From: a virus
Lineage: Duplodnaviria; Heunggongvirae; Uroviricota; Caudoviricetes
Virus record (IMG/VR): IMGVR_UViG_2512047041_000002
Location: 1 to 16,160 of that record
Reading direction: 5' to 3' (one strand)
Length of the DNA stretch: 16,160 nucleotides
Shown piece by piece: positions 1,426 to 16,160 of this stretch. The notes under the pieces are model-generated. The model searched no databases and was not told the origin of the DNA. It saw nothing but the letters and a program-made list of their open reading frames with translations. How positions within the stretch are numbered: the first letter of the stretch is position 1; each line of letters begins with the position of its first letter. The position numbers and the translations under genes were made by a program.

Positions 1426-2489
1426 ATTTCAATTTTGTCCCACTCCCTGCCTCTGTCATCACGATACTGTGATGCCATGGTGTCCGACTTATGCCCGAGA
1501 AGATGTTGAGCAAACTTATCGCTTATCTGCTTCTCATAGAGTCTTGCAGACAAACTGCGCAACTCGTGAAAGGTAGGCGGATCCCCTTCGAAGGAAAGAC
1601 CTGATGCTTTTCGTGCGCGCATAAAATACCTTGATACTGTGCCGGATGAAAGCGGTTCACGACGAGTAGATGCAATTATGGTTTCTCCGCCAAGAATCTC
1701 TTTGCATTTATCAAGTGTTTCCTTCATTGATATCCCGAGAGCATCAACATGCAATGCTGTTGGGATGGCAATTTTTACGCCTGTTTTGCTTTGCTCGACA
1801 TAAAGATATCCATCTACGATATCAGACCACTTCATTTCGCATAAATCACCAACTCGCTGCCCGGTAACAACAGCCAGTTCCATTGCAAGTCTAAGCCAAC
1901 ATGGTGATGATTCTGCTGCTTGATAAATTTTCAGGTATTCGTCAGCCGTAAGTCTTGATCTCCTTACCTCTGATTTTGCTGCGCGAGTGGCAGCGACCGG
2001 GTTTGTTGTTATATGGCCTTCAGCTATTGCCTCTCGGAATGCATCGCTCAGTGTTGATCTGATTAACTTGGCTGACGCCGCCTTGCCCTCGTCTATGTAT
2101 CCATTGAGCATTGCTGCAATTTCTTTTGTGGTGATGTCTTCAAGTGGAGCATCAGTCAGACCCCTCCTTATTGCTTTAATTTTGCTCATGTAATTTATGA
2201 GTGTCTTCTGCTTGATTCCTCTGTTGGCGAGAATTTTTTCGTAGCGATCAAGCCATGAATGTAACGTAACAGAATTATCACTGTTGATTCTCGCTGTCAG
2301 AGGCTTGTGTTTGTGTCCTGAAAATAACTCAATGTTGGCCTGTATAGCCTCAGTGATTGCTATCCTCCTGTCTCGGCCTAATCCAAACTCTTTACCCGTC
2401 CTTGGGTCCCTGTAGCAGTAATATCCATTGTTTCTTATATAAAGATTAGGGGGTAAATCCCGGCGCTCATGACTTCGCCTTCTTCCCAT
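1419..2489 (-). CDS. int: Tyrosine integrase, lambda Int (356 aa)
   Basis: Translation MGRRRSHERRDLPPNLYIRNNGYYCYRDPRTGKEF... ends ...QYRDDRGREWDKIEIK, which I recognise as lambda Int with only a few substitutions; located next to attL and overlapping xis as in lambda. Confidence 0.95.
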   Translation of the reverse strand: MGRRRSHERRDLPPNLYIRNNGYYCYRDPRTGKEFGLGRDRRIAITEAIQANIELFSGHKHKPLTARINSDNSVTLHSWLDRYEKILANRGIKQKTLINYMSKIKAIRRGLTDAPLEDITTKEIAAMLNGYIDEGKAASAKLIRSTLSDAFREAIAEGHITTNPVAATRAAKSEVRRSRLTADEYLKIYQAAESSPCWLRLAMELAVVTGQRVGDLCEMKWSDIVDGYLYVEQSKTGVKIAIPTALHVDALGISMKETLDKCKEILGGETIIASTRREPLSSGTVSRYFMRARKASGLSFEGDPPTFHELRSLSARLYEKQISDKFAQHLLGHKSDTMASQYRDDRGREWDKIEIK

Positions 2490-2685
2490 TTCTGATCCTC
2501 TTCAAAAGGCTACCTGTTACTGGTCGATTTAAGTCAACCTTTACCGCTGATTCGTGGAACAGATACTCTCTTCCATCCTTAACCGGAGGAGGGAATATCC
2601 TGCATTCGCGCACCCATCGACGAACTGTTTCAAGGCTTCTTGGGCGTCGCTGGCGTGCGTTCCACTCCTGAAGTGTCAAGTACAT
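2467..2685 (-). CDS. xis: Excisionase Xis (72 aa)
   Basis: Internal ATG at 2683..2685 gives MYLTLQEWNARQRRPRSLETVRRWVRECRIFPPPVKDGREYLFHESAVKVDLNRPVTGSLLKRIRNGKKAKS, matching lambda Xis as I recall it; the 102-aa ORF in the track is an upstream extension. Confidence 0.92.
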   Translation of the reverse strand: MYLTLQEWNARQRRPRSLETVRRWVRECRIFPPPVKDGREYLFHESAVKVDLNRPVTGSLLKRIRNGKKAKS

Positions 2686-2802
2686 CGCAAAGTCTCCGCA
2701 ATTACACGCAAGAAAAAGCCGCATTGATGCGGCGATGGTAGGTCTGGATATCATTGAGCAATGAACAGGCCTCATCGAGTGTGAGGCGGTGTTATTTCAT
2801 GG

Positions 2803-3147
2803 TTAGTCCTTGCGTAGCTCGCTGATTCTTCTGTAAGTCTCTGGTGCTTTGTTTCCGTGTATCTTCATTTCAAACTTCAACAGAGCAACGAGAGAATCCC
2901 ATTCGTTGAGGATGCCTTTGAATGCCGGAACGCGCTTTGCAACCTTGTCGAATGAATCTCTGATTTCTGGAATCTGCTCAACAAGTGCAACGCATCGCCG
3001 GAAGTCTGCTGCGTCATGTGGAGCGCCGAAGTGATGACCATAGATATTTTTTTTCAGTCCACATGCGATTGAGGCAAGAGTTGCGCTACTGATGCCGACA
3101 TCGCCAGTTGATTGCCATTTCAAAACCTTCATAGCCAAATCTGACAT
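2803..3147 (-). CDS. Hypothetical phage early-left protein (114 aa)
   Basis: ATG at 3145..3147 preceded by GGAGA Shine-Dalgarno; ORF MSDLAMKVLKWQSTGDVG...; no motif recognised. Track start at 3174 lacks an RBS. Confidence 0.6.
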   Translation of the reverse strand: MSDLAMKVLKWQSTGDVGISSATLASIACGLKKNIYGHHFGAPHDAADFRRCVALVEQIPEIRDSFDKVAKRVPAFKGILNEWDSLVALLKFEMKIHGNKAPETYRRISELRKD

Positions 3148-3173
3148 TTCTTGTCTCCAATAAAAAACCGCCA

Positions 3174-3341
3174 TCAGGCGTCTTGGTGTTCTTTCAGTTC
3201 TTCAATTCGAATATTGGTTACGTCTGCATGCGCTATCTGCGCCCATATCATCCAGTGGTTATAGCAGTCGTTGATGTCCTCTGCTTCGATAACCCTGTCG
3301 AATGGCTCTCCATTCCATTCACCTGTGACTCGGAAGTGCAT
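3174..3341 (-). CDS. Small hypothetical protein (55 aa), not in ORF track
   Basis: Hand translation of minus strand: MHFRVTGEWNGEPFDRVIEAEDINDCYNHWMIWAQIAHADVTNIRIEELKEHQDA*; GGAG Shine-Dalgarno 7 nt upstream; hydrophilic, protein-like composition, unlike the overlapping 61-aa track ORF. Confidence 0.45.
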   Translation of the reverse strand: MHFRVTGEWNGEPFDRVIEAEDINDCYNHWMIWAQIAHADVTNIRIEELKEHQDA

Positions 3342-3441
3342 TTATCATCTCCATAAAACAAAACTCGCCGTAGCGAGTTCAGATAAAAGAAATCCCCGCG
3401 AGTGCGAGGATTGTTATTCACCTTTGACGGCAAGTTGCAGG

Positions 3442-3969
3442 TTAGCCACGGTTAACCTCCTGCGGCGGTTCTGGCAGCGGCATCCAGTGGGTTACGTCAT
3501 CCAAGATATTTCCTGATAAATATGTGAAAGCTCTATATTTTTTGTAATCAATTGGACTCATTACCCAGTTCCAATATGCTGCCACTATTTGACCTTGACT
3601 AAATGCCAGTAACATTTTGGTGTCGTCCGGCATTCGCTCACTACAGCTTATCCAACCATCCGGAGTTACCGGCACTGGCTGAGCGGTATAAAGCGGTGTT
3701 ATATCTGCCCGAAAATTACATGCTTTATGCAGCCGCACCCCCCGTTCGACTTCTGCTTTGTCAGGATACATACCAGTGAACGTGTTATATTCACGGTCAA
3801 TTTGCGTGAAGGTTACCTTCCACGCCACCGGCTCTGCCTCAAGCGATGCCAGAGCAATTCGTGCCAGTTCTTCCGCTTCTTCTGCTGGCAGTACAACGTT
3901 GCTACCAGGTCTGTATGTTTCGCGCCACTGCTTGATTGTCAGCAGTCGCTCTTTGGTAATAGTGGTCAT
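3442..3969 (-). CDS. DUF551-like phage protein (175 aa)
   Basis: C-terminal PDGWISCSERMPDD...THWMPLPEPP signature that I associate with DUF551 phage proteins; ATG overlaps upstream stop (ATGA). Confidence 0.6.
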   Translation of the reverse strand: MTTITKERLLTIKQWRETYRPGSNVVLPAEEAEELARIALASLEAEPVAWKVTFTQIDREYNTFTGMYPDKAEVERGVRLHKACNFRADITPLYTAQPVPVTPDGWISCSERMPDDTKMLLAFSQGQIVAAYWNWVMSPIDYKKYRAFTYLSGNILDDVTHWMPLPEPPQEVNRG

Positions 3970-4481
3970 GCCGCGTTTCCTTCTTTCTTATTAACAATTA
4001 CACCGTCATATATTTCATTAAGGTGCCCTCTCAACTCCATGCGCCTTAATGCAGATAACATGTAATCGCATTCAACCTGCTTATTTCCAGTAAATGGCTT
4101 ATCGTCAGGATTACCCCAACAGCAATTACCCTTGGGCCATCCATGTACTTTCCGTACTCTTCCGTTAACAACGTGAAGTAATCCCCAGCCGGGAGGTAAA
4201 TCCTCAACTGAAATAATTTCCGGCTCACTAATAAAGAATCGCCAGTCGCCCATGCCAAGTGAGGGATTTTTACGGAAACGCTTTTTTCTATCTGCCAACA
4301 AGTCAGCACGAGAACACTTCGCCTCTATCAGGCATGATGCTGAATTTCTGAATCCCATAGCATCTGGCTGTTCTCCGGTACTGGTTACAGCTATAAAGCG
4401 GTCATGAAAACAGACCTTGAACCCGTTGCGCTTAAGGAACTTGTGCGCAATCTGACAGAGTTCGCTGTGTGTTAACGCCAT
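3966..4481 (-). CDS. Putative PD-(D/E)xK nuclease-fold protein (171 aa)
   Basis: Start MALTHSELCQ at 4479..4481 with AAGGAGAG Shine-Dalgarno; motif GEQPDAMGF ... CLIEAKCS resembles the PD...(D/E)xK signature; Cys-rich C-terminal region. Fold assignment is by motif only. Confidence 0.45.
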   Translation of the reverse strand: MALTHSELCQIAHKFLKRNGFKVCFHDRFIAVTSTGEQPDAMGFRNSASCLIEAKCSRADLLADRKKRFRKNPSLGMGDWRFFISEPEIISVEDLPPGWGLLHVVNGRVRKVHGWPKGNCCWGNPDDKPFTGNKQVECDYMLSALRRMELRGHLNEIYDGVIVNKKEGNAA

Positions 4482-4482
4482 A

Positions 4483-5076
4483 TCACTCTCCTTTGATGCG
4501 AATGCCAGCGGCACGGGAATCATTCCATCGCTTTACTTCTTCACGAATTACGTCAATGCATTCTTTCGAATCCATTAGGTAATCTTCATCAAAAAGACGT
4601 TCCTGTTCGTTTTCTATCGCAACAATGATTGCTTCAACTAACTTTTGTACCTGAGAACCACTTTCTAACTCTGCTATGCGCTTACTCCCATCCGAGATAA
4701 CGCCCTCGTAATACTCACGCTGCTCGTTGAGTTTTGATTTTGCCAACTCCAGTTGTTTTGTTAGTTCCGCAATACGGCAAACATCGTTGATACGCGTTTC
4801 CTCTAATGCGTTGATCTCATCCAACAATGCCAGCGCAACATTTGGATTAAAAGCAGCAATAAATTCAGCGTTTGCATAAGCCTGAACATCTGTTTCAACC
4901 AGGCAGTTAACATGACATTCTGCAATCACGCCACCGGGTTCTCCTTTCCATTTTTGGCAAACAAAAACTCCTGTTAAATTGCCGTGCTGGTTAACAGATG
5001 TATGCCCTACGATGTAGCTCCCTTTCGTTGCCTTTTCTGCCGCATCACGCAGTGCCTGATAATTAATTTCGCTCAC
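4483..5076 (-). CDS. Ead/Ea22-like early protein (197 aa, GTG start)
   Basis: GTG at 5074..5076 with GGAGGA Shine-Dalgarno, overlapping upstream stop (GTGA); MSEIN... N-terminus and ...AGIRIKGE C-terminus resemble Ea22-family proteins as I recall them. Confidence 0.55.
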   Translation of the reverse strand: MSEINYQALRDAAEKATKGSYIVGHTSVNQHGNLTGVFVCQKWKGEPGGVIAECHVNCLVETDVQAYANAEFIAAFNPNVALALLDEINALEETRINDVCRIAELTKQLELAKSKLNEQREYYEGVISDGSKRIAELESGSQVQKLVEAIIVAIENEQERLFDEDYLMDSKECIDVIREEVKRWNDSRAAGIRIKGE

Positions 5077-5297
5077 TCTTCATCCTCCAAGTCGGCAACG
5101 GCGTCCATCACATCAGAACCGCGAATAACCTCAAAAGCACGGCAGGCCATTTGAAATACCAGTTGCTCTTGCGGGTGAGGAGACTCCCAATATTTGAAGC
5201 CTGGGCGATGCGTGTACCCCATCATTGAATAAAAATCACCAGCAAGCTTAATCGCGGCATCGACAAGCTCTCTGTTAGTCATTCTTTTTCCGCTCAC
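5073..5297 (-). CDS. Hypothetical protein (74 aa, GTG start)
   Basis: GTG at 5295..5297 preceded by AAGGAGG; translationally coupled to both neighbours (4-nt overlaps). Confidence 0.5.
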   Translation of the reverse strand: MSGKRMTNRELVDAAIKLAGDFYSMMGYTHRPGFKYWESPHPQEQLVFQMACRAFEVIRGSDVMDAVADLEDEE

Positions 5298-5713
5298 TGG
5301 TTGCCTCCTTTGCGAAGCTGGGCGGCTAACTCATCACATATGTGCGTCAAAGAACAAAGTTTGATTGATGGATGTTCGCGCATCATCTCTACTCCCTGCG
5401 CCCGCACTTCAGACAGGAAAGCATCGGTGGCTGGCATATTTCCTGTTGCCTTCATTGCCTCCAAAATAACCAGAACGCCATCTCGCCCAACCACCTCAGC
5501 GATAACCTCGGTGTTGTCGCCAACAACATCGCAGAATGCCTGAACTGCCTTACGAGCCAGCGCACTCTCCGCCGCCAGCGCCGCGCACTTGGCCTCCGCT
5601 TCAGCAAATTTACGCACCAGATATTCAGCGTTTGTTTCGTTAACCTTTAAATCGCTTGGGATGCATTTACCTTTCAGGAATCCATCCATCTCAATTAGTG
5701 ACATTTGTTTCAT
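5294..5713 (-). CDS. Hypothetical protein (139 aa)
   Basis: ATG at 5711..5713 overlaps upstream stop (ATGA); part of a chain of coupled ORFs; no motif recognised. Confidence 0.55.
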
Positions 5714-5874
5714 TTCTTCCCACTCCGCAACATCGCATTCAGATATTTGTTTTGATTCACTGACGGAAAAGAATTTCTCTTTAGCAATTCCTCTCTCGAT
5801 GGCATTGGCTTTACGCGCTGGCGAATAATCATTTCTGCCGGAAGAATGCCGGGGTTGTATGCAAGTCCTCTCAT
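5710..5874 (-). CDS. Small hypothetical protein (54 aa)
   Basis: ATG at 5872..5874 preceded by GAGGA that overlaps the TGA stop of the upstream gene; the longer 101-aa track ORF overlaps the 5885..6181 gene and lacks an RBS. Confidence 0.4.
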
Positions 5875-5884
5875 GGTAAATTCC

Positions 5885-6181
5885 TCAGTCATTACTGATA
5901 GCGCCATAGCGTGATCGATAATTACGCAGCCGCGGGTCGATATATTCAGGGAAGTGGGTATATGTGGCTTTGCGGAATGGTCGGATTGATGTTTCGTTTG
6001 TTCGGTCCTTCTCATTTTTTAACGCGAGTTGTATATCGCGTCGGTACATCCGTTCTGCTTTTGTTTCTGGTGGCAGATCGATAAACGTGTCGAAAATGTT
6101 TTTGATATTTTCCAGCACCTCCGCCTTGGAGCTACCGGAGCAATTGCGCGGGTCATCCGCACCATACAGAGGCGCTGGCAT
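5885..6181 (-). CDS. Hypothetical protein (98 aa)
   Basis: ATG at 6179..6181, weak AAGG Shine-Dalgarno; fits the operon spacing. Confidence 0.5.
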
Positions 6182-6204
6182 AATGGGAGCCTTATTTTCA
6201 GTAA

Positions 6205-6792
6205 TCAGAAAGCAGGGTAATCGTTCTTGCTGTAACCATAATCATCTGCATGATTCTGGCTTACGTTTTTAGAGCGATTGTCTTTATCTTTGAGATTGGC
6301 AACCATGTTGGCGATAGTTTCTGGTTGCTTGCCTTCTGCCTTTTCTTTAAGGGTTTGACCTGTTTGTGCAATAAACGGGATGCGTATTTCCATCTGGTAG
6401 TTGTCTGCGCCAGTCTTTTTGTTTGTGGTTAATACTTTCTGGAGCACTAACCCGATTTTCTTTCCATGAAATTCAGGTGCAACAAATTTACTGGCGGAAA
6501 CCATATGCTGCGTTAATTGTCCAATCCCGGCACACCCCATCATGGCGTGAACGACATTTGCGCCAAATTTGTTTTCCGTTCCGTCATTTTTCTGAACACA
6601 GACGCTAAGATATTGGATTTTACGTCCGTCGTCGGATTCTCCAGAAAACTCAATAAATTTGGCTCCTTTTTCTGATTGCTTTAGTTCTGCTTCAGTAATG
6701 GTAATGATATGGGCGCCAGTTTCGTTAATAAAACCACCTTGCCCTGCGGTCAGTGCTGCTTCTTCGTTATAAGTAAAAATCACGTTGCTCAT
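6205..6792 (-). CDS. Sak4-partner protein (195 aa), possibly ssDNA-binding (DUF669-like); not a canonical SSB
   Basis: Directly downstream of and overlapping (ATGA) the Sak4-like ATPase gene; Lys-rich acidic C-terminal tail ending DYPAF; the family name is from memory and uncertain. Confidence 0.5.
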   Translation of the reverse strand: MSNVIFTYNEEAALTAGQGGFINETGAHIITITEAELKQSEKGAKFIEFSGESDDGRKIQYLSVCVQKNDGTENKFGANVVHAMMGCAGIGQLTQHMVSASKFVAPEFHGKKIGLVLQKVLTTNKKTGADNYQMEIRIPFIAQTGQTLKEKAEGKQPETIANMVANLKDKDNRSKNVSQNHADDYGYSKNDYPAF

Positions 6793-7469
6793 GCGGCGTT
6801 TTCCTTAATTTGATGAACATTATTGATGCCGTAGTAATCACAAACAGTGGCATCGACGAAAGAGAGATCGTTATCAATCTCATTGGAATCAAACATTCCC
6901 ATTGGGGATTTGACAGTGTCTGCACCGTTGTTTTTCGTGGTGAAAAAGAACTGGTCATCGCGGGTAAGAGTGCGAAGAACTATAGTAAACATGCCTTCGA
7001 CAGTGATTTTCTCGTCCAGCATTTTGCCGATAGTTTTCATTTTCACGCGCCCCATAGGGGTTTCTTCGGTATGTGCAAGAAAATAGACTCTCAGGTCATC
7101 AGGTGCATCCTGTGCAGCCTTAATCACCTCCCATGCGTGGCGGCCTATCTCAGTAAATTTATCAAACGATTTTTCTTCTGAGCGGCGCATAAACTCATTG
7201 CTCATCACATACTGGAAGTCATCAACAATAACGATTCTTTTTCCGTATTCGTGAGCACGCTTAATTACAGCAACTATTACGTCCCATTTGTCAGTGGTAA
7301 CTACGGTTCCTTTTTTTGCTCTGGCATCCCATGCAAGCCAGTCTTTTGATTTAAATGGTAGCGGCTTGCCTATTGGTTTTATAAGTATTGCTTCCTCTGG
7401 ATTGATATTTCTCATGCTGGTTGATTTTCCGGTGCCAGATTCACCGAGTATTAATGTCGCAGTTCCCAT
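6789..7469 (-). CDS. Sak4-type RecA-like core ATPase (226 aa), phage recombination/annealing protein
   Basis: Walker A GESGTGKST near N-terminus, Walker B-like RIVIVDDF, and a size typical of Sak4; occupies the position of lambda Red genes. Confidence 0.7.
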   Translation of the reverse strand: MGTATLILGESGTGKSTSMRNINPEEAILIKPIGKPLPFKSKDWLAWDARAKKGTVVTTDKWDVIVAVIKRAHEYGKRIVIVDDFQYVMSNEFMRRSEEKSFDKFTEIGRHAWEVIKAAQDAPDDLRVYFLAHTEETPMGRVKMKTIGKMLDEKITVEGMFTIVLRTLTRDDQFFFTTKNNGADTVKSPMGMFDSNEIDNDLSFVDATVCDYYGINNVHQIKENAA

Positions 7470-7477
7470 AATTTGCC

Positions 7478-7666
7478 TCAGAATGGTAATTCGGATGGGC
7501 AGGAAAGAAATTCGCGCTCATTCATGCGCTCTCTTTGCGCCTGCCATAAACAAAGTTGTTTCTTTGATTTATCTCCCGCTTTACGCCAGTAACGAGCCTC
7601 AGCAATGTGATATTCTCTTTTTAATCGACTTAACTCTGGAGTTTTCGCCAGTTCTACCGGAATCAT
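7478..7666 (-). CDS. Hypothetical protein (62 aa)
   Basis: ATG at 7664..7666 with GGAGG Shine-Dalgarno, overlapping the Kil-like stop (ATGA); basic, Arg/Lys-rich. Confidence 0.5.
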   Translation of the reverse strand: MIPVELAKTPELSRLKREYHIAEARYWRKAGDKSKKQLCLWQAQRERMNEREFLSCPSELPF

Positions 7667-7776
7667 TTTGACCTCCATTTTCTGTAGGCTTCTACGGCTT
7701 CACGAAACATCTTTTCATCGCCAATAAAAGTGGCGATAGTGAATTTAGTCTGGATAGCCATAAGTGTTTTATCCAT
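7663..7776 (-). CDS. Kil-like small protein (37 aa)
   Basis: MDKTLMAIQTKFTIATFIGDEKMFREAVEAYRKWRSK resembles lambda Kil as I recall it; position immediately downstream of cIII, overlapping its 3' end, matches lambda gene order. Confidence 0.5.
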   Translation of the reverse strand: MDKTLMAIQTKFTIATFIGDEKMFREAVEAYRKWRSK

Positions 7777-7909
7777 TTTTGGGAACTCCTGGCTGATTAA
7801 GTATGTCGATAAGGCGTTTCCATCCATCACGTAATTTACGTGTGATTCGTTCAAGTAAAGATTCGGAAGGGCAGCCAGCAACAGGCCACCCTGCAATGGC
7901 ATATTGCAT
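7769..7909 (-). CDS. cIII: CIII (46 aa; shorter than the 54-aa lambda protein)
   Basis: ATG at 7907..7909 with AGGAG Shine-Dalgarno; MQYAIAGWPVAGCPSESLLERITRKLRDGWKRLIDILNQPGVPKNG* matches lambda CIII as I recall it up to PKNG, then stops. Confidence 0.85.
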   Translation of the reverse strand: MQYAIAGWPVAGCPSESLLERITRKLRDGWKRLIDILNQPGVPKNG

Positions 7910-7970
7910 GGTGTGCTCCTTATTTATACATAACGAAAAACGCCTCGAGTGAAGCGTTATTGGTATGCAT

Positions 7971-7996
7971 ATAAAAAGGCCCTCACACTGGAGGGC
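7971..7996 (-). terminator. Intrinsic terminator-like hairpin upstream of cIII (tL1-like position)
   Basis: On the minus strand GCCCTC-cagtgt-GAGGGC (6-bp GC stem) followed by CTTTTTAT. Confidence 0.5.
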
Positions 7997-8261
7997 AAAG
8001 AAGATTTCCAATAATCAGAACAAGTCGGCTCCTGTTTAGTTACGAGCGACATTGCTCCGTGTATTCACTCGTTGGAATGAATACACAGTGCTTCTCTGTG
8101 CTAAATAATTAAATCATATTCTGATTTGGTTAGTTTATACGCACCTCCTCTGGTGTAATATGCAAATCTGTCTTTGCTTCCATCAGAATTGTATACCCAC
8201 CCACCAAATGGAAAGATAGTGAACCGCCCCGGGTTTCCTGGAGAGTGTTTTATCTGTGAAC

Positions 8262-9152
8262 TCAGGCTGCCAGATCATCGTTTCCGATGGAAGCATAATA
8301 AGCTTTTTCTGCTTCTGCCGGAGGAGTATGGCCCAGCCTTTCCAGCAATCGTCGATTGTTATACCAGTCCACCCACGTGAGTGTGGCCAGTTCCACTTCT
8401 GCACGGTTTTTCCAGCTCTTACGGTGTATTACCTCCGCTTTGTAAAGACCATTGATGCTCTCCGCCATCGCGTTGTCATACGAGTCGCCTGTACTTCCTG
8501 TTGATGCCAGTAATCCGGCTTCCTTAAGCCGCTGTGTGTAGGCCAGCGATACATACTGAGAACCTTTATCACTGTGATGGACCGTGCCGGACGGTCGACG
8601 GGCCCATAACGCCTGCTCCAGTGCATCCAGCACGAATGTCGTTTCCATGGACGATGAGACCCGCCACCCCACGATGTATCCGGCAAACACATCAATGATG
8701 AACGCCACATAGACGAAGCCCCGCCATGTGCTGACGTAAGTAAAATCAGCCACCCACAGCTGGTCAGGTCGTTCTGCCACGAACTGACGGTTTACGCGGT
8801 CGCCTGCGGCAACGGCTTTCCGGCTGATGGTCGTACGGACCTTTTTACCCCGGAGAACACCGGCAAGTCCCATAACCGCCATGAGACGTGCCACAGTGCA
8901 TCTGGCCACTCTGATACCTTCCCGTAACAACTGACGCCAGACTTTACGCACACCGTATACCTTGTGATTTTCATCGTATACGCGCTGTATCTCTTTCTTC
9001 AGCCAGTCATCGCGCTGCGCACGGGCACTGCGTTTATCCGGATGATGTCGCTGTTGCTGACAGTGGTAATACGTTGACGGGGCAATATGCAGTTCGCTGC
9101 ATAGCGGTCCGACCCCGTACTGCTCACGCAGCTTATCCAGCAGTGGCATCAT
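8262..9152 (-). CDS. IS629-like transposase OrfB (296 aa, DDE catalytic domain)
   Basis: IS3-family OrfB-like sequence (…[31 protein letters not shown]…[11 protein letters not shown]…) in the -1 frame relative to orfA. Confidence 0.85.
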
Positions 9153-9475
9153 TTTTTCCAGAGGCGGTCGAACTCCGCCTTCGCAAAATAAGCGGAAGCC
9201 TGGCGAAGGATATCGTTACTGCGGCGCAGTTCACGATTTTCACGTTCCAGCTCTTTCAGACGCTGACGTTCAGCGGTGGTGAGCCCTCCATCACCGCCCC
9301 CGGTATCCCGCTCATGCTGGCGAACCCAGACACGCAGAGTCTCCGGCGTACAGCCAATCTTTGGAGCAATGGAACAAATTGTCGCCCATTGTGAGTCATA
9401 TTCGCCCTGACTTTCCAGAACCATACGGACTGCCCGTTGACGGACTTCGGGGGAAAAACGAGTATTTTTAGTCAT
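9149..9475 (-). CDS. IS629-like transposase OrfA (108 aa, HTH)
   Basis: [30 protein letters not shown]... with C-terminal leucine-zipper-like region; ends in an A6 run (GGAAAAAATGA) at the orfA/orfB overlap. Confidence 0.85.
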
Positions 9476-9622
9476 CCTGTTTACCTCTTTCTCAGGAAGT
9501 TTAGTCTCCAGGATTCCCGGGGCGGTTCATCTCCAGAACTTGGCAGGATTACAAGTTCATACGGAGAACTTGCACGAGCAGCAACAAAGCCACTTCGATA
9601 TGTTGAACAGACAGGGCGATCT

Positions 9623-10030
9623 ATGCCAGCCATTAGCACTCTTGAGAATGGCCTTCATCCAGTTTTAGAGAGCGCATTGTCTGGCGCTTTTAGAACTACT
9701 GGCACTATCGCAGGGTTCTCTGGAGGAGGCGTTATTGGAGCAATAGCGGGTGGCGCTGCAGGTGGGGCAATTGATGCAATGGCAAAAGGAGCGATAGCGA
9801 AATTATCCGCAACTAGAAGCGGTCGTTACGCTATTGAAAAGGCTGTTCAAGAGGCAACAAAGGCAGTTAAGGTTGGGGCAAGTGATGGCGCATTAGCGGC
9901 GGCGGAACGCAGATTTATGGCAAATAAGGCCGCCGTAAAAGCAATACGCGAGGCACTAGGAAACGAAGAGTTCCAGCGTTTAGCAAGAGCTGGAATTGTG
10001 GCATCGCTAAGCGGAATGGCACAGGAGTAA
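9623..10030 (+). CDS. Glycine-zipper protein (135 aa), possible membrane-active/bacteriocin-like; 5' end may be truncated by the IS
   Basis: TIAGFSGGGVIGAIAGGAAGGAIDAMAKGAI GxxxG-repeat segment followed by Ala/Lys-rich amphipathic helices; weak RBS at the first ATG and the frame stays open back to the IS boundary. Confidence 0.4.
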   Translation: MPAISTLENGLHPVLESALSGAFRTTGTIAGFSGGGVIGAIAGGAAGGAIDAMAKGAIAKLSATRSGRYAIEKAVQEATKAVKVGASDGALAAAERRFMANKAAVKAIREALGNEEFQRLARAGIVASLSGMAQE

Positions 10031-10360
10031 TTAGTCATCCATGGATGGATTGAGCTTATCTCGTGTTGATGTGGCAATTTTCCCAACATTTTTCAACCAA
10101 GATTTTAAGAAGGATATGTCGTCCTTAATATCATGAATATCCTCATTCTTTATACGATCAACCTTATCCTCTAAGCTCTCTATAGAACGCTCAATGCTAG
10201 ACAGAGAGATTTTTAAGTCCCCTTGCTCACGTTCCAGTGAGGATTTGAGAGCACAATATTCGTTTTCTAGAATTCCTATTTTTTTTGTTAGAGAGTGCAT
10301 TCGATACTCATACACCAAACCAGAAACGACTAATGCAGCCAACAGAAACCATTCAAGCAC
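10031..10360 (-). CDS. Membrane-anchored coiled-coil protein (about 110 aa, GTG start)
   Basis: GTG at 10358..10360 preceded by AAGGAGG; N-terminal hydrophobic helix LEWFLLAALVVSGLVYEY followed by heptad-like SLEREQGDLKISLSSIERSIESLEDKVDRIK; stop abuts the convergent glycine-zipper stop (TAATTA). Confidence 0.5.
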   Translation of the reverse strand: MLEWFLLAALVVSGLVYEYRMHSLTKKIGILENEYCALKSSLEREQGDLKISLSSIERSIESLEDKVDRIKNEDIHDIKDDISFLKSWLKNVGKIATSTRDKLNPSMDD

Positions 10361-10390
10361 ACCAACCTCCTTAGTTTTGAGCAGGATACC

Positions 10391-10756
10391 ATGAAAAAAG
10401 TTAACATTGGAAACGTACCAAAGATGCTCGTTCCGCTCTTTGAGAGCGGTACAATTGTGTGTTGTAGAGACTTTCCAGAATGGCAACGCCTGCATCAAAA
10501 ACTTGGCGTTGACGTGCAGGACTCGGATGCCAACGGAGCGTCTCATACAATGAGCAGCGAGAATGGTGTTTTGCATGTGATAGGTGTGTTCAATGGCAAA
10601 CTATCTACTATTGCCCATGAGTGCGCTCACATGGCATTCGATATCTGCTCAAGGGTCGGTGTTGATGTTGAACCAGGAAGAGCCAATGAGACTTACTGCT
10701 ACTTAATGAGCAGGCTTGTTGAGTTCTGCGAGCGACATATCAAAAAGCCGGAGTGA
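10391..10756 (+). CDS. Small HExxH-motif protein (121 aa), possible ImmA/IrrE-like metallopeptidase-fold protein
   Basis: ATG at 10391 with AGGA 4 nt upstream; motif TIAHECAHMAFD (HExxH) in the C-terminal half; two Cys pairs. Assignment by motif only. Confidence 0.45.
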   Translation: MKKVNIGNVPKMLVPLFESGTIVCCRDFPEWQRLHQKLGVDVQDSDANGASHTMSSENGVLHVIGVFNGKLSTIAHECAHMAFDICSRVGVDVEPGRANETYCYLMSRLVEFCERHIKKPE

Positions 10757-10764
10757 CCCGGCTT
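10745..10764. terminator. Stem-loop between convergent genes (possible bidirectional terminator)
   Basis: AAGCCGG-agtgac-CCGGCTT overlapping the HExxH gene stop; flanked by A-run on one side and T-rich sequence on the other. Confidence 0.3.
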
Positions 10765-10769
10765 GATTA

Positions 10770-10949
10770 TTACTTTTTGCTGTCTGGAGTTCGCTTATCC
10801 AATACCCAGCCATGACCTGGCTTTGTTGTTGGTGGAAGCCTTTCGTTGTCCTTGACGGTGGCAAAATTGTCTTTCTTACCGCCGCGTGGGCCAACTTCTT
10901 GGTATATTCCGCCGTTTTTTCCTGTGTTTTCACCTGGTTTTTTCGCCAT
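10770..10949 (-). CDS. Small Gly/Lys-rich hydrophilic protein (59 aa)
   Basis: ATG at 10947..10949 with GAGGT Shine-Dalgarno; MAKKPGENTGKNGGIYQEVGPRGGKKDNFATVKDNERLPPTTKPGHGWVLDKRTPDSKK; TTGACT -35-like hexamer upstream. Confidence 0.5.
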   Translation of the reverse strand: MAKKPGENTGKNGGIYQEVGPRGGKKDNFATVKDNERLPPTTKPGHGWVLDKRTPDSKK

Positions 10950-11039
10950 GATATACCTCAACATGCACCCGTTATTGGGCGATTAAATATTGATCTCATT
11001 TTATGAGTAGTCAATATGGTCCAAAAAAGGTAAAAATTA

Positions 11040-11064
11040 ACCCACCGTCAGGTGGGTTTTTTAT
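11040..11064. terminator. Intrinsic terminator hairpin, likely bidirectional; ends the Mnt-like/ClpP-like operon
   Basis: ACCCACC-gtca-GGTGGGT followed by TTTTTTAT on the plus strand and by TTAATTTTTACC on the minus strand; 24 nt beyond the ClpP-like stop. Confidence 0.6.
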
Positions 11065-11087
11065 AAGGAGTAATCATGATTTACCCA

Positions 11088-11624
11088 TCAAACAACCCAC
11101 CAGTTTGCCTGATTGGATGCCAGCCTTGCAGTTTTTATGGAATTAATTATGCCATGCTCAAGAGCCTTGTTAGCATCCAAAATGGTCGAGTCTGCTATCA
11201 GGGATGCCCACCTAATATGGGTTCCGATGTCGATATTGAACGTCTCAACGAAGCGATCAAGATCGTTATCGAGGCATTTCCCGTACTCTCTCAATCTGGC
11301 ATGGTCGGCGGCTGGGGAGGCAAAGCACCATAATAGAGGATGTAACAGGAATCTTGATAATGGGTTTGCGAAACGTTCTGAGCCAGCCAGGAAAACGATA
11401 TTAGCTATGGATTCAACATTGCTTATGTTGTGAGTTCTAACGGTAACAGGGAGTGACTTAAGAAAGTTATACGCAGTAAAGCCAGCGGCAGTTTCCCCTC
11501 CCTGACTTGATATATGGATATTTAATTCAGTTGCGCCTTGAGATAATGCGGTGAGACAGTGGTTCTGAAGTTGCCCAACAGTGGCAGTGTTAACGGGGCA
11601 TAAGAAATGAATTGTGTGCAGCAT
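11088..11624 (-). CDS. ClpP-fold (S14-family-like) serine peptidase homologue (178 aa), non-structural context
   Basis: By-eye alignment to E. coli ClpP blocks: ISSQGGETAAGFTAYNFL vs INSPGGVITAGMSIYDTM; ESIANIVFLAGSERFANPLSRFLLHP vs [29 protein letters not shown] (Ser and His aligned); C-terminal ALEHGIINSI vs AVEYGLVDSIL. Start ATG overlaps the Mnt-like stop (TAATG). Confidence 0.6.
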   Translation of the reverse strand: MLHTIHFLCPVNTATVGQLQNHCLTALSQGATELNIHISSQGGETAAGFTAYNFLKSLPVTVRTHNISNVESIANIVFLAGSERFANPLSRFLLHPLLWCFASPAADHARLREYGKCLDNDLDRFVETFNIDIGTHIRWASLIADSTILDANKALEHGIINSIKTARLASNQANWWVV

Positions 11625-11872
11625 TATTTTTCATCCTTAGCATACATGGTCTTTAGCGTCTCAAGTAGCGCCTCTTTGAATTTATCAGCTTCTTGGTTAG
11701 CGAATCCTTCAAGTGAGCGAGAGCCATCAAGATTATCAACATGTTTTTGAAGGATAAGCACGATCTCTGAGTTCATTGATCTGCCGTTTTTATCCGCTTC
11801 TTGCTGAATGCGTTTCTTTAAATAGTCTGGAATCCTAATCCCCAATGGACTGATATCTCTTGCACCTTTCAT
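11624..11872 (-). CDS. Mnt-like ribbon-helix-helix repressor (82 aa)
   Basis: ATG at 11870..11872 with GAGGAG Shine-Dalgarno; MKGARDISPLGIRIPDYLKKRIQQEADKNGRSMNSEIV... shows the RHH pattern of P22 Mnt (NGRSMNSE) plus a C-terminal extension; divergent from the Arc-like gene. Confidence 0.75.
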   Translation of the reverse strand: MKGARDISPLGIRIPDYLKKRIQQEADKNGRSMNSEIVLILQKHVDNLDGSRSLEGFANQEADKFKEALLETLKTMYAKDEK

Positions 11873-11894
11873 TTCTCCTCCTGCACGCTGTGCG

Positions 11895-11967
11895 TAGCTA
11901 CACAGTGTAGGCAAAAAATTTTTGACTTTAAATAAACACGGTGTAGTATTTAGTTATCACGGTGTAG
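11895..11967. promoter_or_regulatory. immI divergent promoter/operator region
   Basis: Perfect palindrome CTACAC-A-GTGTAG (11898..11910); two direct copies of CACGGTGTAG (11937..11946, 11958..11967) 21 bp apart; TTGACT (11922..11927) with TAGTAT 16 bp downstream as a candidate rightward promoter overlapping the repeats. Confidence 0.55.
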
Positions 11968-11981
11968 CAAGTGAGGTGGAA

Positions 11982-12122
11982 ATGAAAGTTAGAGACATCG
12001 CTCCATTAGGGATTCGTATCCCGCCAGAGATTAAAGAAAAATTGAAGGAAAAGGCTAAGGAGGAGGGCAGGTCTTTAAATTCAGAAATAGTGAAGCGTCT
12101 TATTCGCAGCCTAAAAAGTTGA
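11982..12122 (+). CDS. Arc-like ribbon-helix-helix repressor (46 aa)
   Basis: ATG at 11982 with GAGGTGG Shine-Dalgarno; [46 protein letters not shown]; the RHH strand [11 protein letters not shown] is nearly identical to the Mnt-like protein; the 66-aa track ORF is an upstream extension. Confidence 0.7.
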
Positions 12123-12170
12123 AGCCCCAACTGCTGGAACAGTCGGGGCTTCGGTATCAACAAATCAGAT
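12113..12170 (-). ncRNA. Candidate sar-like antisense RNA opposing the antirepressor RBS (hypothetical)
   Basis: Minus-strand TTGACT (reverse complement of 12200..12205) and AATAAT (12175..12180) with a 19-bp spacer; downstream a 12-bp imperfect hairpin (12121..12152) followed on the minus strand by AACTTTTTAG. Confidence 0.25.
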
Positions 12171-12183
12171 AGGAATTATTGAT

Positions 12184-13113
12184 ATGACAAGTTTAGCAAA
12201 GTCAACATTAAATTGCACTAACAGCATCACCATTTCAGACGTCAAGATTCATATGGATTCAGAGGGGCGTTACTCGCTTAATGACCTGCACAAGGCATCA
12301 GGTAAAGAGCGTCGTCATGAGCCTGCGGCGTGGCTGCGACTCGAACAAACCAATGAGTTAGTTCAAGAAATTCTAAATACACAGATGTGTGTATTTAAAA
12401 ATGGCGATAACTTTAATTCTTCAGAATCGCAGATTAAGAAGCCAATGGACTCTAAGAAGGGTCGCTACGGAGGCACCTACGTGTGCAAGGAGCTTGTTTA
12501 CTCCTACGCCATGTGGATTAGCGCAGCCTTTGCGCTGAAGGTTATCCGTGCATATGACGCAATGGTTACTGCCACACAAGAGAGGAAAGCTATTGGCGGT
12601 AAAACTTCAGTAGCTGAACGCACACCGCTACGAGATGCAGTAAACATGCTGGTAGGAAAGAAAGGACTTCGCTATGACGATGCATACAATATGGTTCATC
12701 AGCGTTTTGGTATTGACAGCATTGATGAACTTTCAATTGAACAAATCCCGCTGGCCGTAGAGTACATCCACAGGGTAGTGCTTGAAGGTGAGTTCATCGG
12801 CAAACAAGAGAAGAAAACCAACGAGCTTTCTGCAAAAGAAGCAAACAGCCTTGTATGGTTATGGGATTATGCCAACCGCTCACAGGCATTATTCCGCGAA
12901 CTGTATCCGGCATTAAAACAAATTCAATCGAACTATTCCGGCAGATGTCATGACTGCGGTTATGAGTTCTCCCGTATTATCGATATGGCGAGAGATGTTT
13001 TAATCAACCATACACGAGATGTTGATATTAATGAGCCAGACGGACCAACGAATCTTTCCGCATGGATGAGACTTAAGAATAAAGAATTACCTCCTTCAGT
13101 ACATAACTACTGA
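12184..13113 (+). CDS. Antirepressor with N-terminal KilA-N domain (309 aa), Ant-like
   Basis: Position directly after the Arc-like gene as in P22 immI; N-terminal region ([25 protein letters not shown]...[23 protein letters not shown]) resembles KilA-N; AGGA RBS. Confidence 0.65.
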
Positions 13114-13131
13114 CAGATAACCAACGCAACG

Positions 13132-13156
13132 ACCCAGCTTCGGCTGGGTTTTTTTA
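13132..13156 (+). terminator. Rho-independent terminator after the antirepressor gene
   Basis: ACCCAGC-ttcg-GCTGGGT followed by TTTTTTTAT, 19 nt after the stop codon. Confidence 0.7.
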
Positions 13157-13213
13157 TGCCCAAAATTCACCGTAGCCATGCTGCGGCGATTCCTTGTGTC
13201 TGGAGCAAATTAA

Positions 13214-15130
13214 ATGAGAGACATTACAGCCAATGTGATCGTATCGATGCCTTCGCAACTCTTCACTATGGCGCGTTCTTTTAAAGCCGTAGCTAATGGC
13301 AAAATTTATATCGGTAAAATTGACACTGATCCTGTAAATCCAGAAAACCAGATTCAGGTCTATGTGGAGAATGAAGACGGTTCTCACGTTCCTGTTTCGC
13401 AACCAATAATCATTAACGCTGCTGGATATCCTGTATATAACGGACAGATTGCCAAATTCGTTACCGTGCAAGGCCATTCTATGGCTGTTTATGATGCGTA
13501 TGGTGCGCAGCAGTTCTATTTTCCTAATGTGCTGAAGTATGACCCTGATCAACTACGGCAGCAATTAGAAGACCCAGATGGAGCGAATAAATACCCAAAA
13601 CTTCAGATAGCAAGATGGAGAGACAGTTATGATGTAAGAGGTTGGGGGGCTATTGGTGATGGTGTTCATGATGATACATCAGCTCTATCAGAATTACTTT
13701 CTGTTGCAACAGGTGGTGAAAAGATAGATGGGCGAGGGCTTACTTTTAAAGTATCAACTCTTCCAGATGTCAGTCGATTTAAAAATGCTCGTTTTTTATT
13801 TGAGAGAATACCGGGTCAGCCTCTTTTTTATGCTTCTGAAGATTTTATCCAGGGAGAGTTATTTAAAATTACAGATACACCGTGGTACAACGCCTGGACG
13901 CAGGATAAAATGTTTGTATATGACAATGTCATCTATGCGCCTTTTATGGCTGGAGACCGCCATGGTGTAAATAACCTCCATGTTGCATGGGTTCGCTCAG
14001 GAGATGACGGGAAGACCTGGACAACGCCGGAATGGCTTACAGATTTACATGAAAACTATCCCACAGTTAACTATCACTGCATGAGTATGGGGGTTGTCAG
14101 AAATCGCCTTTTTGCTGTAATTGAGACGCGGACCGTGAGAGGAAATAAACTGCAGGTTGCAGAGTTGTGGGATCGCCCAATGAGTCGCAGCCTTCGCGTT
14201 TATGGTGGTATAACGAAAGCAGCAAATCAGCAAGTCGCTTATATTCGCATTACTGATCACGGATTATTTGCTGGTGATTTTGTCAACTTCTCAAACTCTG
14301 GTGTTACAGATGTTACCGGGAATATGACGGTGACTACTGTTATTGATAAAAATACCTTTACAGTTACGACGCAAAATACCCAGGATGTGGATCAGAATAA
14401 CGAGGGTAGATACTGGAGTTTTGGCACATCATTTCACTCGTCACCATGGAGAAAAACCAGTCTTGGAACTATTCCTTCTTTTGTTGACGGAAGCACTCCT
14501 GTTACTGAGATTCACAGTTTTGCGACGATTAGCGATAACAGTTTTGCTGTTGGCTACCATAATGGTGATATTGGTCCACGCGAGCTTGGGATACTCTATT
14601 TCTCTGATGCTTTCGGTTCTCCTGGTAGCTTTGTTCGCAGACGCATACCTGCAGAATATGAGGCGAATGCATCTGAGCCATGTGTAAAATATTATGATGG
14701 CATTCTGTATCTGACGACCAGGGGGACATTAAGTACTCAACCCGGTAGTTCATTGCACAGAAGCTCTGATTTAGGTACATCATGGAATTCTCTTCGCTTC
14801 CCAAATAATGTTCATCACTCAAACCTTCCTTTTGCCAAAGTTGGCGATGAGCTGGTTATTTTTGGCAGTGAGCGCGCATTTGGTGAGTGGGAAGGAGGAG
14901 AACCTGATAACCGTTATGCAGGAAATTATCCAAGAACATTTATGACCAGAGTTAACGTCAATGAGTGGAGTCTGGATAATGTAGAGTGGGTTAATGTTAC
15001 TGATCAGATTTATCAGGGCGGAATAGTTAACTCTGCGGTTGGTGTTGGTTCAGTTTGTATCAAAGACAACTGGCTGTACTACATTTTCGGTGGGGAAGAC
15101 TTTTCTAAACCCATGGAGCATAGGGGATAA
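13214..15130 (+). CDS. Tailspike: P22-like head-binding N-terminal domain plus glycosidase-type receptor-binding domain with Asp-box (BNR) motifs; likely the 5' part of a frameshifted longer gene
   Basis: First ~115 aa ([11 protein letters not shown]...[38 protein letters not shown]...[15 protein letters not shown]...NVLKYDPDQ) closely resemble the P22 gp9 N-terminus as I recall it; [14 protein letters not shown] motif; two Asp-boxes SGDDGKTW and SSDLGTSW. Confidence 0.8.
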
Positions 15131-16160
15131 CAACAGAAAATATCCTTATGTTCACGATGGTCACCCGGCTGATTTGTATTGTTTCAGGGTGAAAATTAAA
15201 CAGGAAGAATTTGTTTCAAGGGATTTTGTCTACGGAGCCACTCCTAACAGAACGCTTCCTACTTTTATGTCGACGTCAGGCGTGAGGACGGTTCCTGTAC
15301 CCGTTGATTTCACAGATGATGTTGCCGTCCAGTCACTGACTGTCCATGCAGGTACATCAGGACAAGTTCGCGCGGAAGTCAAACTTGAGGGTAATTACGC
15401 CATTATTGCGAAGAAAGTACCGTCTGATGATGTTACCGCTCAGAGATTAATCGTTAGCGGCGGTGAAACAACGTCTTCAGCAGATGGTGCAATGATAACG
15501 TTGCATGGTTCCAGAAGCAGTACTCCACGTCGCGCGGTATATAACGCACTCGAACATCTTTTTGAGAACGGAGATGTTAAACCTTATCTTGATAATGTAA
15601 ATGCTCTTGGTGGTCCGGGAAACAGGTTCTCGATAGTTTATCTTGGCTCCAATCCTGTGGTTACCAGTGACGGAACATTAAAGACAGAGCCGGTCTCTCC
15701 TGACGAAGCATTGCTGGATGCCTGGGGTGACGTCAGGTATATCGCTTATAAATGGCTGAACGCTGTCGCTATAAAGGGGGAAGAAGGGGCGAGGATACAT
15801 CATGGTGTAATCGCGCAGCAACTTCGTGATGTTCTTATTTCTCACGGACTCATGGAAGAAGAAAGCACAACATGCCGCTATGCCTTTCTTTGCTATGACG
15901 ATTATCCCGCAGTATATGATGACGTCATTACTGGCCAAAGGGAAATGCCGCTGACTGATAATGACGGGAGCATCATTGTTGATGAGGATGATAATCCAGT
16001 GATGGTAATAGAAGACATCATTGAGCGCGTTGAAATAACGCCAGCAGGATCTAGATGGGGGGTCAGACCTGATCTCTTATTCTATATCGAGGCAGCATGG
16101 CAGCGCAGAGAAATGGATAAGATAAAAGCTAGGTTAGACTTAATAGAAGGGAAGCACTAA
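15039..16160 (+). CDS. Tailspike C-terminal region with S74-type intramolecular chaperone domain signature; probably continues 13214..15130 in another frame
   Basis: Frame open from 15027, overlapping the end of the upstream ORF; contains TSDGTLK (Ser-x4-Lys spacing as I recall for the autocleavage site of such domains) and [11 protein letters not shown] motif; track start is a TTG with no RBS, so an independent start is doubtful. Confidence 0.55.

Follow-up and report, generated by a model that had tools for sequence, protein, structure and literature searches.

The right-hand end of the window (the whole 16,160 nt stretch of DNA analysed here) carries two long, overlapping open reading frames with tailspike-like sequence, which raises the question of whether these are two genes, one gene read in an unusual way, or one gene that has been broken. 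The open reading frame listing of the window places ORF1 at 13214..15130 on the + strand (638 aa) and ORF2 at 15039..16160 in the +1 frame (373 aa counted from the first TTG), the stop codon of ORF2 being the window's final three bases. In the +1 frame the last upstream stop is a TAG at 15024..15026, and the frame stays open from 15027 on. A sequence-only reading had described the 638 aa frame, the opening at 15027 and about 370 further residues downstream, all of which the listing confirmed, and had proposed a single tailspike of roughly 980 aa split by a frameshift. Comparison with intact relatives bears this out. Aligned to them, each frame supplies one half of a single gene, siaK1, which encodes the CUS-3-type endosialidase tailspike:

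13214..15130, + strand: siaK1 5' part (ORF1), codons 1-630 wild-type, then 8 out-of-frame codons (SKPMEHRG) and TAA at 15128..15130
15105..16160, + strand: siaK1 3' part, +1 frame, codons 631-981 plus stop

In CUS-3 (CP000711), AR_0017 and VR50, siaK1 is an unbroken 2946 nt coding sequence of 981 codons sharing 99.3-99.8% identity with the window, and the whole-gene alignment contains exactly one gap, at gene position 1888. Deleting one T in silico restores a 981 aa protein with zero internal stops, the length of the homologues that run unbroken over the junction, and the gene body is in one piece in 180 of 193 surveyed (complete E. coli genomes). The endosialidase of phage K1F, endoNF (PDB 1v0e, 3gvl, 3gw6), is homologous in its catalytic, stalk and chaperone parts: ORF1 matches 1v0e/3gvl at E ~1e-238 up to chain position ~483, the +1 frame takes over at position 476 and continues to 666 (E 8e-69), and the C-terminal chaperone structure 3gw6 matches ORF2 at E 3e-94. 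Matches of this strength are well outside what chance would give, and both halves are covered by solved structures of a close homologue; the CUS-3-type tailspikes all belong to a single 90% protein cluster. As the endoNF crystal chains are unbroken across the frame junction, there was originally a single gene, and no homologue was found that ends where the 638 aa frame ends or has the downstream part as a free-standing gene.

The domains of the tailspike are spread over both frames as follows (residues counted from the ORF1 start):

aa 1-113, + strand: P22 gp9-type head-binding domain (PF09008, E 1e-66)
aa 146-212, + strand: endosialidase N-terminal extension (Pfam match)
aa 213-635, + strand: beta-propeller in ORF1 (PF12217 profile positions 1-340 of 367, E 2e-213)
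aa 324-406, + strand: beta-barrel insert in the propeller (Pfam match)
from 15105, + strand: end of the beta-propeller in the +1 frame, last ~27 residues (PF12217 profile positions 332-367)
about 15201..15665, + strand (+1 frame): stalk domain (PF12219, E 2e-78)
about 15666..15848 and, as in 3gw6, on through to the end, + strand: S74 intramolecular chaperone (PF13884)
15666..15683, + strand: S74 autocleavage motif SDGTLK, intact, out of frame with the start codon

The head-binding region matches the N-domains of P22, Sf6 and HK620-type tailspikes in the PDB (E 1e-45 to 1e-64), and PF12195 and PF12218 both match in the N-terminal extension and beta-barrel insert. The S74-type signature noticed earlier is real, with PF13884 covering ORF2 residues 210-270 (E 4e-11), and the Ser-Lys dyad that acts in S74 autocleavage (PMC3742443) is found within TSDGTLK, with Ser818 encoded at 15666..15668 and Lys823 at 15681..15683 in the numbering of the repaired protein. 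However, the gene is not split between its catalytic and chaperone domains, as had been thought: the break falls inside the catalytic beta-propeller, at PF12217 position ~340 of 367 and ~188 residues N-terminal to the cleavage serine, and ORF2 is not a chaperone half only, as the propeller end and the whole stalk still precede the S74 domain.

The position of the lesion also differs from the one first suggested, which was a GGGG run:

15092..15095, + strand: first GGGG run, invariant in all relatives and not the lesion
15100..15104, + strand: lesion, C-TTTT with one base too many by comparison with intact relatives
15123..15126, + strand: second GGGG run, invariant in all relatives and not the lesion

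The first of these runs had been placed one base too far left, at 15091..15094. Aligning the window to full-length homologues, a check that had been proposed, found the frame junction at 15100..15104, where the window reads GAC TTTT CTA (15098..15107) and its relatives read GAC TTT CTA (173 of 183 genomes) or GAT TTT CTA (the other 10); the frameshifted allele is thus GACTTTTCT and the intact alleles are GACTTTCT or GATTTTCT. The extra base occurs in none of the 183 complete E. coli genomes that have the segment. Neither G-run differs between the window, CUS-3, AR_0017, VR50 and N21, their lengths are the same in 183/183 genomes, and in the best copy of each of those genomes no indel was found in the 99 nt around them, the weakest full-length match over this stretch being 99.0% (one substitution), so that three- and four-way alignments together with the survey rule out a G-run as the lesion. 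Removing a G from 15123..15126, as had been suggested, would leave eight wrong residues in the fused protein, SKPMEHRG replacing LNPWSIG. The GAC/GAT codon is the sole polymorphic site in the 99 nt across the 183 genomes, and the extra base may have arisen either by addition of a T to a T3 run or by insertion of a C into GA^TTTT, a single event either way. The majority allele, GAC TTT (173/183), points to a T3 run having grown to T4. VR50 and AR_0017, whose alleles are overall the closest of the intact ones, read GAT TTT and would require the C insertion.

The broken gene lies at the end of a prophage, the window running from ybhC through the integrase, early-left genes, cIII, an IS3-family element, a gp16 fragment and immI to the tailspike:

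1..1284, - strand: ybhC, chromosomal, left flank of the prophage
1419..2489, - strand: lambda-type integrase, with ybhC marking the left prophage end
7864..7922: cIII thermoregulator
8220..9529, - strand: IS3-family insertion sequence, 1310 bp with 25 nt terminal inverted repeats
9152..9475, - strand: IS3-family orfA, within the 8220..9529 element
8265..9152, - strand: IS3-family orfB, within the same element
9078..9194, - strand: ALIL frameshift pseudoknot of the IS3-family element
9530..10030, + strand: P22 gp16-type DNA transfer (ejection) protein gene, 3' fragment, truncated by the IS
12117..13113, both strands: immI remnant of P22 type, immediately 5' of the tailspike gene
12117..12182, - strand: sar antisense RNA, part of the immI remnant
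12184..13113, + strand: antirepressor Ant, part of the immI remnant

The insertion site is ybhC/ybhB (pgl-bioA). Between cIII and the gp16 fragment there is only the IS3-family element, which occupies the place of all P22-type immunity, replication, lysis, head and tail genes, whereas the intact relative VR50 has gp10, gp26, gp14, gp7, gp20 and gp16-type genes upstream of its tailspike. Because the element stands where the P22-type morphogenesis genes belong, the prophage is defective, a CUS-3-like element without any virion-building gene. In the sequence of strain N32 that is identical to the window, PGAP labels the gp16 fragment as 'incomplete, missing N-terminus' and flags further pseudogenes.

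We therefore consider it probable, from the alignments and this setting, that siaK1 has been inactivated by one extra nucleotide and is a genuine pseudogene in a dead CUS-3-like prophage, which among the three origins first offered (a pseudogene in a decaying prophage, a sequencing error or slippage-based phase variation) fits the context best. Translation from the normal start would give residues 1-630, eight wrong residues and a stop, leaving a truncated product that lacks the propeller end, the trimeric stalk and the C-terminal chaperone. The S74 C-terminal chaperone is required for endosialidase folding and trimerisation (PMC3742443), and with stalk and chaperone missing the product would be expected to be inactive. 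The downstream 351 codons are likewise expected to be silent, because no start codon there has its own ribosome-binding site. The IS3-family element and an associated deletion have removed every virion-making gene, and with those genes gone there is no selection for an intact tailspike. The most probable origin of the frameshift is neutral decay, as a genuine mutation confined to the window's lineage.

Strain N32 is the nearest relative: its remnant is the same and sits at the same place in the chromosome. It was reported to be 100.0% identical to the window in an independent assembly over window positions 1..14799, the lesion segment being deleted in N32. There siaK1 has been disrupted by IS1, IS600 and IS3 insertions together with a deletion of ~14800..16135, and neuO, the capsule O-acetyltransferase gene, lies just downstream of siaK1, as it does in CUS-3. 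By comparison with N32, neuO would lie just past the window end, and its presence is probably the reason why the remnant persists. The siaK1 of CUS-3 itself (ABQ88383.1; Stummeyer et al. 2006, cited through PMC5380687) shares 99.3% nucleotide identity with the window over the whole 2.9 kb, the domain order (head-binding domain, N-extension, beta-propeller with beta-barrel, stalk, S74 chaperone) and ant as the upstream neighbour. It differs in lacking the extra base at 15100..15104 that breaks the window's frame, and against it the window allele carries the private substitutions T2R, T233M, G366D, M932I and I967M/E968D/R969K. The private substitutions are mostly non-synonymous (the G366D site is conserved in K1F) and fit an independently drifting copy. 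The prophages differ too: the window's is at ybhC/ybhB with a lambda-type integrase and has lost all morphogenesis genes, unlike CUS-3, which in RS218 is reported to lie between dsdC and argW (PMC9659370). K1F endoNF shares the Ser-Lys autocleavage motif with the window, but has a T7-type N-terminal adaptor in place of the P22 head-binding domain (PMC5380687) and is one unbroken chain at the frameshift position. By descent, then, the locus belongs to the siaK1 family, but in its present state it is a pseudogene and not a functional member.

In the E. coli K1 genomes of N21, N32 and MS20654, all extraintestinal or CSF isolates, siaK1 has likewise been knocked out in resident prophages: N21 has +A near window position 13759 and -AT near 14980 (PGAP: 'frameshifted') and MS20654 has an IS3 insertion. 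Their lesions differ from each other and are independent, and the window's extra base is in none of them. CUS-3-like prophages have been described as decay-prone, their tail and coat genes carrying pseudogene annotations, and as using a second integration site, with 20-50 kb inserts, between pgl and bioA (PMC9659370, PNAS 2022); this pattern matches the location and state of the window's prophage, although the frameshift itself is absent from that paper. The retention of neuO described there is visible here only through N32, as neuO is beyond the window end.

An unlikely but tangible alternative is that the real gene is intact (2946 nt) and the extra base came from consensus calling, with reads of two tailspike copies, one GAC TTT and one GAT TTT, having been mixed. 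The window's exact allele is unique across all collections searched, being absent from 5,426 complete E. coli genomes and not found in GTDB representative genomes, metagenome contigs or IMG/VR viral contigs, and its 638 aa product has no match in the gene-position index. The string GACTTTT also combines the two natural alleles, at the one site in the vicinity that is polymorphic, and mis-polishing could yield it if the genome has two siaK1 copies; many genomes hold 2-4 copies of this gene, which in some related chromosome-level assemblies has odd indels outside homopolymers, such as the two in N21. However, siaK1 has no second indel although it contains 13 runs of 5-6 nt, where errors are much likelier than in a T3/T4 run, and a pseudogene is to be expected in a decayed prophage anyway. 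All 13 siaK1 homopolymers of at least 5 nt match the relatives in length, and together with the 14.8 kb reported at 100.0% identity to an independent assembly this favours a real mutation over an error.

We also considered, as a distinctly improbable variant of the pseudogene reading, that inactivation of the tailspike was selected and not neutral, or, in a weaker form, that low-level +1 read-through at UUUU still gives some wild-type protein. A K1-encapsulated host would keep the CUS-3 remnant for neuO after normal late-gene control was lost, and cytoplasmic endosialidase expressed from the ant/immI side might then attack the cell's own polysialic acid, in which case the window's frameshift, the N21 indels, the three IS elements of N32 and the IS3 of MS20654 would all be favoured knock-outs.

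The remaining explanations deserve very little credence. Slippage of tRNA-Phe by +1 on U UUU (15101..15104), by which the window would still yield a full-length tailspike, is far-fetched: the sequence permits re-pairing in the +1 frame, UUUU is closely preceded by an SD-like, G-rich stretch (GGUGGGGAAG, 15090..15099) and the product would have the exact wild-type sequence ...EDFLNPW..., yet the frameshift arrangement is conserved in 0/183 genomes and no shift of frame interrupts the CUS-3, K1F or phi92-type proteins. The 0-frame A-site codon is UCU, which is not a stop and is not known as a rare codon, so that no ribosome pause is expected, and any bypass of the frame would be incidental, unprogrammed and of low efficiency. 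Equally hard to credit is reversible variation in a G4 or T4 run that switches the tailspike on and off, the phase variation raised by the sequence-only reading. The candidate runs are only 4 nt long, while known homopolymer contingency tracts are typically at least 7 nt; the G-runs and the T-run show zero length variation in the best copy of the 183 genomes; and as the prophage is unable to make virions, a switch would have nothing to control. The neighbouring neuO is a genuine phase-variable locus with AAGACTC heptad repeats (PMC3046976), so contingency behaviour does exist in the CUS-3-type element. That two independent genes are present, one for a catalytic protein and one for a stalk/chaperone protein translated on its own, is the least credible reading, since besides the two long frames themselves it meets a split inside a single structural domain, no homologue arranged in this way, no SD-like motif before any in-frame ATG, GTG or TTG of the ORF2 frame and an S74 chaperone that works in cis, on the chain preceding it (PMC3742443).

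The right annotation for the locus is a single siaK1 pseudogene, frameshifted, in a CUS-3-like prophage remnant; it should be entered neither as two genes nor as a phase-variable or recoded gene. The importance of the case beyond this is small, although it shows that frame junctions should be found by aligning with intact homologues, as the lesion here was not in the nearest homopolymer. It adds a further instance to the decay already recorded for CUS-3-like prophages in K1 E. coli, in which the phage machinery erodes and the neuO module stays, and it could serve as a lineage marker for N32-related strains.

The two open-reading frames at the right end of the window, ORF1 (13214..15130, + strand, 638 aa) and ORF2 (+1 frame, TTG 15039 to 16160, 373 aa, ending on the window's final triplet, its stop), are laid out as the sequence-only reading had described: the ORF2 frame carries no stop from 15027 on, the preceding TAG lying at 15024..15026. 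In Enterobacteria phage CUS-3 (CP000711) the endosialidase tailspike gene siaK1 is a single 2946-nt CDS, labelled 'endosialidase tailspike protein', which matches 13214..16160 over its full length at 99.3% DNA identity, whereas the window copy is split in two frames; the tailspike CDS is likewise annotated as continuous in E. coli AR_0017 and VR50. The first ~115-140 residues of ORF1 match the head-binding domain of P22, Sf6 and HK620-type tailspikes and residues 145-634 match structures of the K1F endosialidase endoNF (1v0e, 3gvl; E ~1e-238), whilst the ORF2 frame matches endoNF chain positions 476-666 (E 8e-69) and its C-terminal intramolecular chaperone structure (3gw6, E 3e-94).

Pfam domains of the two open-reading frames
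ORF1 residues 1-113: PF09008, head binding
ORF1 residues 146-212: PF12218, N-terminal extension
ORF1 residues 213-635: PF12217, beta-propeller, profile positions 1-340 of 367
ORF1 residues 324-406: PF12195, beta-barrel insert
ORF2 residues 19-54: PF12217, beta-propeller, profile positions 332-367 of 367
ORF2 residues 55-209: PF12219, stalk
ORF2 residues 210-270: PF13884, Peptidase_S74

As PF12217 is divided between the two frames, the break lies inside the catalytic beta-propeller, not at the boundary between catalytic and chaperone domains as first proposed. The autocleavage serine lies ~188 residues downstream (Ser818 in the numbering of the repaired protein, codon 15666..15668), with Lys823 (codon 15681..15683) as its partner.

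A whole-gene alignment of the window with AR_0017 and CUS-3 contains exactly one gap, and the idea of one tailspike gene broken by a frameshift holds against intact homologues. The lesion is one surplus base within C15100/T15101..15104; deletion of one T in silico gives a 981-codon frame, equal in length to the relatives.

Junction sequences
Window, 15096..15110: GAA GAC TTT TCT AAA
CUS-3: GAA GAC TTT CTA AAC
AR_0017 and VR50: GAA GAT TTT CTA AAC

The candidate site had been placed at two GGGG runs, the second correctly located at 15123..15126 and the first actually at 15092..15095 rather than 15091..15094. Both runs are the same in every aligned sequence and the gap maps to 15100..15104; the 15123..15126 run, unchanged among aligned alleles, does not set the window allele apart, and removing one G from it fuses the frames arithmetically yet leaves eight wrong residues. 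A T3 to T4 expansion is favoured because most genomes carry GAC TTT, which also occurs in diverged haplotypes. The nearest intact alleles across the whole gene, VR50 (99.8%) and AR_0017, both have GAT TTT, so that a C insertion between A and T would be needed from these. Judged from the alleles, the inserted base is ambiguous (T or C), and either would be a single event at 15100..15104. Translation from the ORF1 start would give residues 1-630 followed by SKPMEHRG, a predicted product that ends before the last propeller strands and has neither trimeric stalk nor chaperone domain. Endosialidases require their C-terminal domain in order to fold and trimerise, and the part of the polypeptide it acts on lies N-terminal to it (PMC3742443).

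An 81-nt query spanning the lesion matched 183 of 5,426 complete E. coli genomes, every best match having 95-99% identity and all ten of those listed having 98.8%, the value expected for one gap; the window's junction version is absent from all 183. With a 99-nt in-frame GAC TTT query, 173 genomes fell in the 99%-or-above band (all 100% among matches listed) and the other 10 below it, the three of these listed each being the GAT variant at 99.0% over full length. No match had an indel across the 99-nt region, hence neither G-run nor the T-run shows length polymorphism. The gene body is in one piece in 180 of the 193 genomes that have it, and nearly all matches listed for a 2601-nt gene-body query span 2600 nt, which places those copies in frame.

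Endosialidase tailspike segments occupy up to 4 places per complete E. coli genome, and their chromosomal surroundings are of at least three kinds: ybhC/ybhB, beside torT and beside intS/argW-type integrases. Genes annotated 'endosialidase catalytic beta-propeller domain-containing protein' represent a second architecture, which shares only positions 176-2569 of query 13560..16160 (about window 13735..16128) and therefore differs at both the N- and the C-terminus.

We consider the tailspike copy to be most likely a genuine pseudogene. The best whole-window match is the CSF isolate E. coli N32, with a reported identity of 100.0% across window 1..14799, and this 14.8 kb of identity to an independent assembly supports a real mutation, as do the 13 homopolymer runs of 5-6 nt in the gene, none of which differs in length from relatives. 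That the extra base is an artefact, not present in the real genome, is unlikely in the face of this agreement, although the window allele was found nowhere else in the collections searched (complete E. coli genomes, GTDB representative genomes, metagenome contigs, IMG/VR viral contigs and, for the 638-aa product, a gene-position index), the extra base coincides exactly with the local GAC/GAT polymorphism, making the window string the union of both alleles, and many genomes hold several copies of the tailspike gene. The allele's private substitutions also speak for a real mutation, as they fit a drifting copy: most are non-synonymous (T2R, T233M, M932I and G366D, the last at a glycine that K1F shares), two are synonymous, and there is a 3' cluster. 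Programmed frameshifting is rejected as it is conserved in no homologue; if tRNA-Phe slipped by +1 on U-UUU, the exact wild-type protein would be restored, incidentally and only at low level. Phase variation, also suggested earlier, fails on 4-nt tracts of constant length and on there being no virion to regulate. Two independent genes are dismissed, as the split falls within a domain, no homologue is so organised, and ORF2 lacks an RBS: no SD-like motif precedes any ATG, GTG or TTG start in its frame, so the 3' part is not a gene of its own.

Features of the prophage remnant
1..1284, - strand: chromosomal ybhC, at the window start
1419..2489: lambda-type integrase (PF00589 and PF09003)
7864..7922, - strand: lambda cIII thermoregulator RNA (88 bits)
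8220..9529, - strand: complete IS3-family element, 1310 bp, 25-nt terminal inverted repeats (TGAACCGCCCCGGG...)
9078..9194: ALIL pseudoknot in this element (Rfam RF01497, 120 bits)
9530..10030: gp16-type DNA transfer gene, 3' fragment
11088..11624, - strand: ClpP-like serine protease gene (178 aa, PF00574, E 2e-11)
12117..12182, - strand: P22 sar antisense RNA (68 bits), directly upstream of ant
12184..13113: ant, preceding the tailspike

The probable pseudogene is an ordinary one: its parent gene is well characterised, and so is the decay of this prophage family well documented. Early-left phage genes follow the integrase as far as the cIII RNA; the interval from cIII to gene 16 lacks the immunity, replication, lysis, terminase, portal, coat, tail and most ejection genes of a P22-like phage, and the IS3-family element (orfA/orfB, HTH_Tnp_1 and rve ORFs) marks the loss of ~25 kb of phage genes. 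Its ends appear to resemble IS629/IS1203, and its ALIL pseudoknot is a true site of programmed -1 frameshifting. VR50, a relative that seems complete, has gp10 through gp16-type genes immediately upstream. According to PMC9659370, CUS-3-like phages are decay-prone and bear pseudogene annotations on tail and coat genes; the paper also describes a second insertion site between pgl and bioA, with inserts of 20-50 kb, and the remnant in the window occupies this site. Two known phage regulatory RNAs, the cIII thermoregulator and sar, are still intact. A few small genes, the ClpP-like gene and an Arc-family repressor gene lie between the gp16-type fragment and sar; the ClpP-like gene adjoins this Arc/Mnt-family gene in the immI region, is kept in AR_0017 and N32, and may be a moron or accessory gene.

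N32 carries the same remnant between ybhC and ybhB, differing by an extra IS3-family copy within the integrase, by three different elements (IS1, IS600 and an IS3-family one) inserted within ~400 bp of the tailspike gene, and by deletion of ~14800..16135 (1.3 kb); NZ_CM165895 22527..27466 corresponds to window 13214..16135. The window matches 31 places in this genome, mostly IS copies, making it IS-rich. Where N32 is identical to the window, PGAP marks a hypothetical gene as frameshifted and an ead/Ea22 gene as truncated. Beyond the window's right end, which is the tailspike stop, neuO comes next in N32, starting ~150 nt past the stop, with 14 AAGACTC heptad repeats by manual count (27644..27746) and only a partial 'acyltransferase' label from PGAP. 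Deszo et al. reportedly found in 2005 that neuO is translated in frame only with repeat numbers divisible by three; on that rule the N32 gene would be phase-OFF, as 14 is not.

The exceptions to the one-piece, in-frame pattern are N32, MS20654, with an IS3-family element within the gene, and N21, where PGAP calls siaK1 'frameshifted' (+A near window 13759, -AT near 14980). The N21 locus (CSF isolate, NZ_CM165899, 1155..4099) is independently frameshifted, with both indels outside homopolymers (+A in CAAC^TCTT; AT lost in GATA[AT]GTAG); genuine decay, or noise in the assemblies of that strain series, could account for them. From these broken copies, inactivation of siaK1 in resident prophages is sporadic and already visible in public annotation, as expected under neutral decay. 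The tailspike's first ~35 nt (13214..13250) are mosaic, AR_0017 differing at 10 positions and CUS-3 being identical to the window, and its last ~50 nt hold four clustered changes (16115..16121; REIERIKA to REMDKIKA), partly common to VR50; both are signs of recombination between tailspike alleles.
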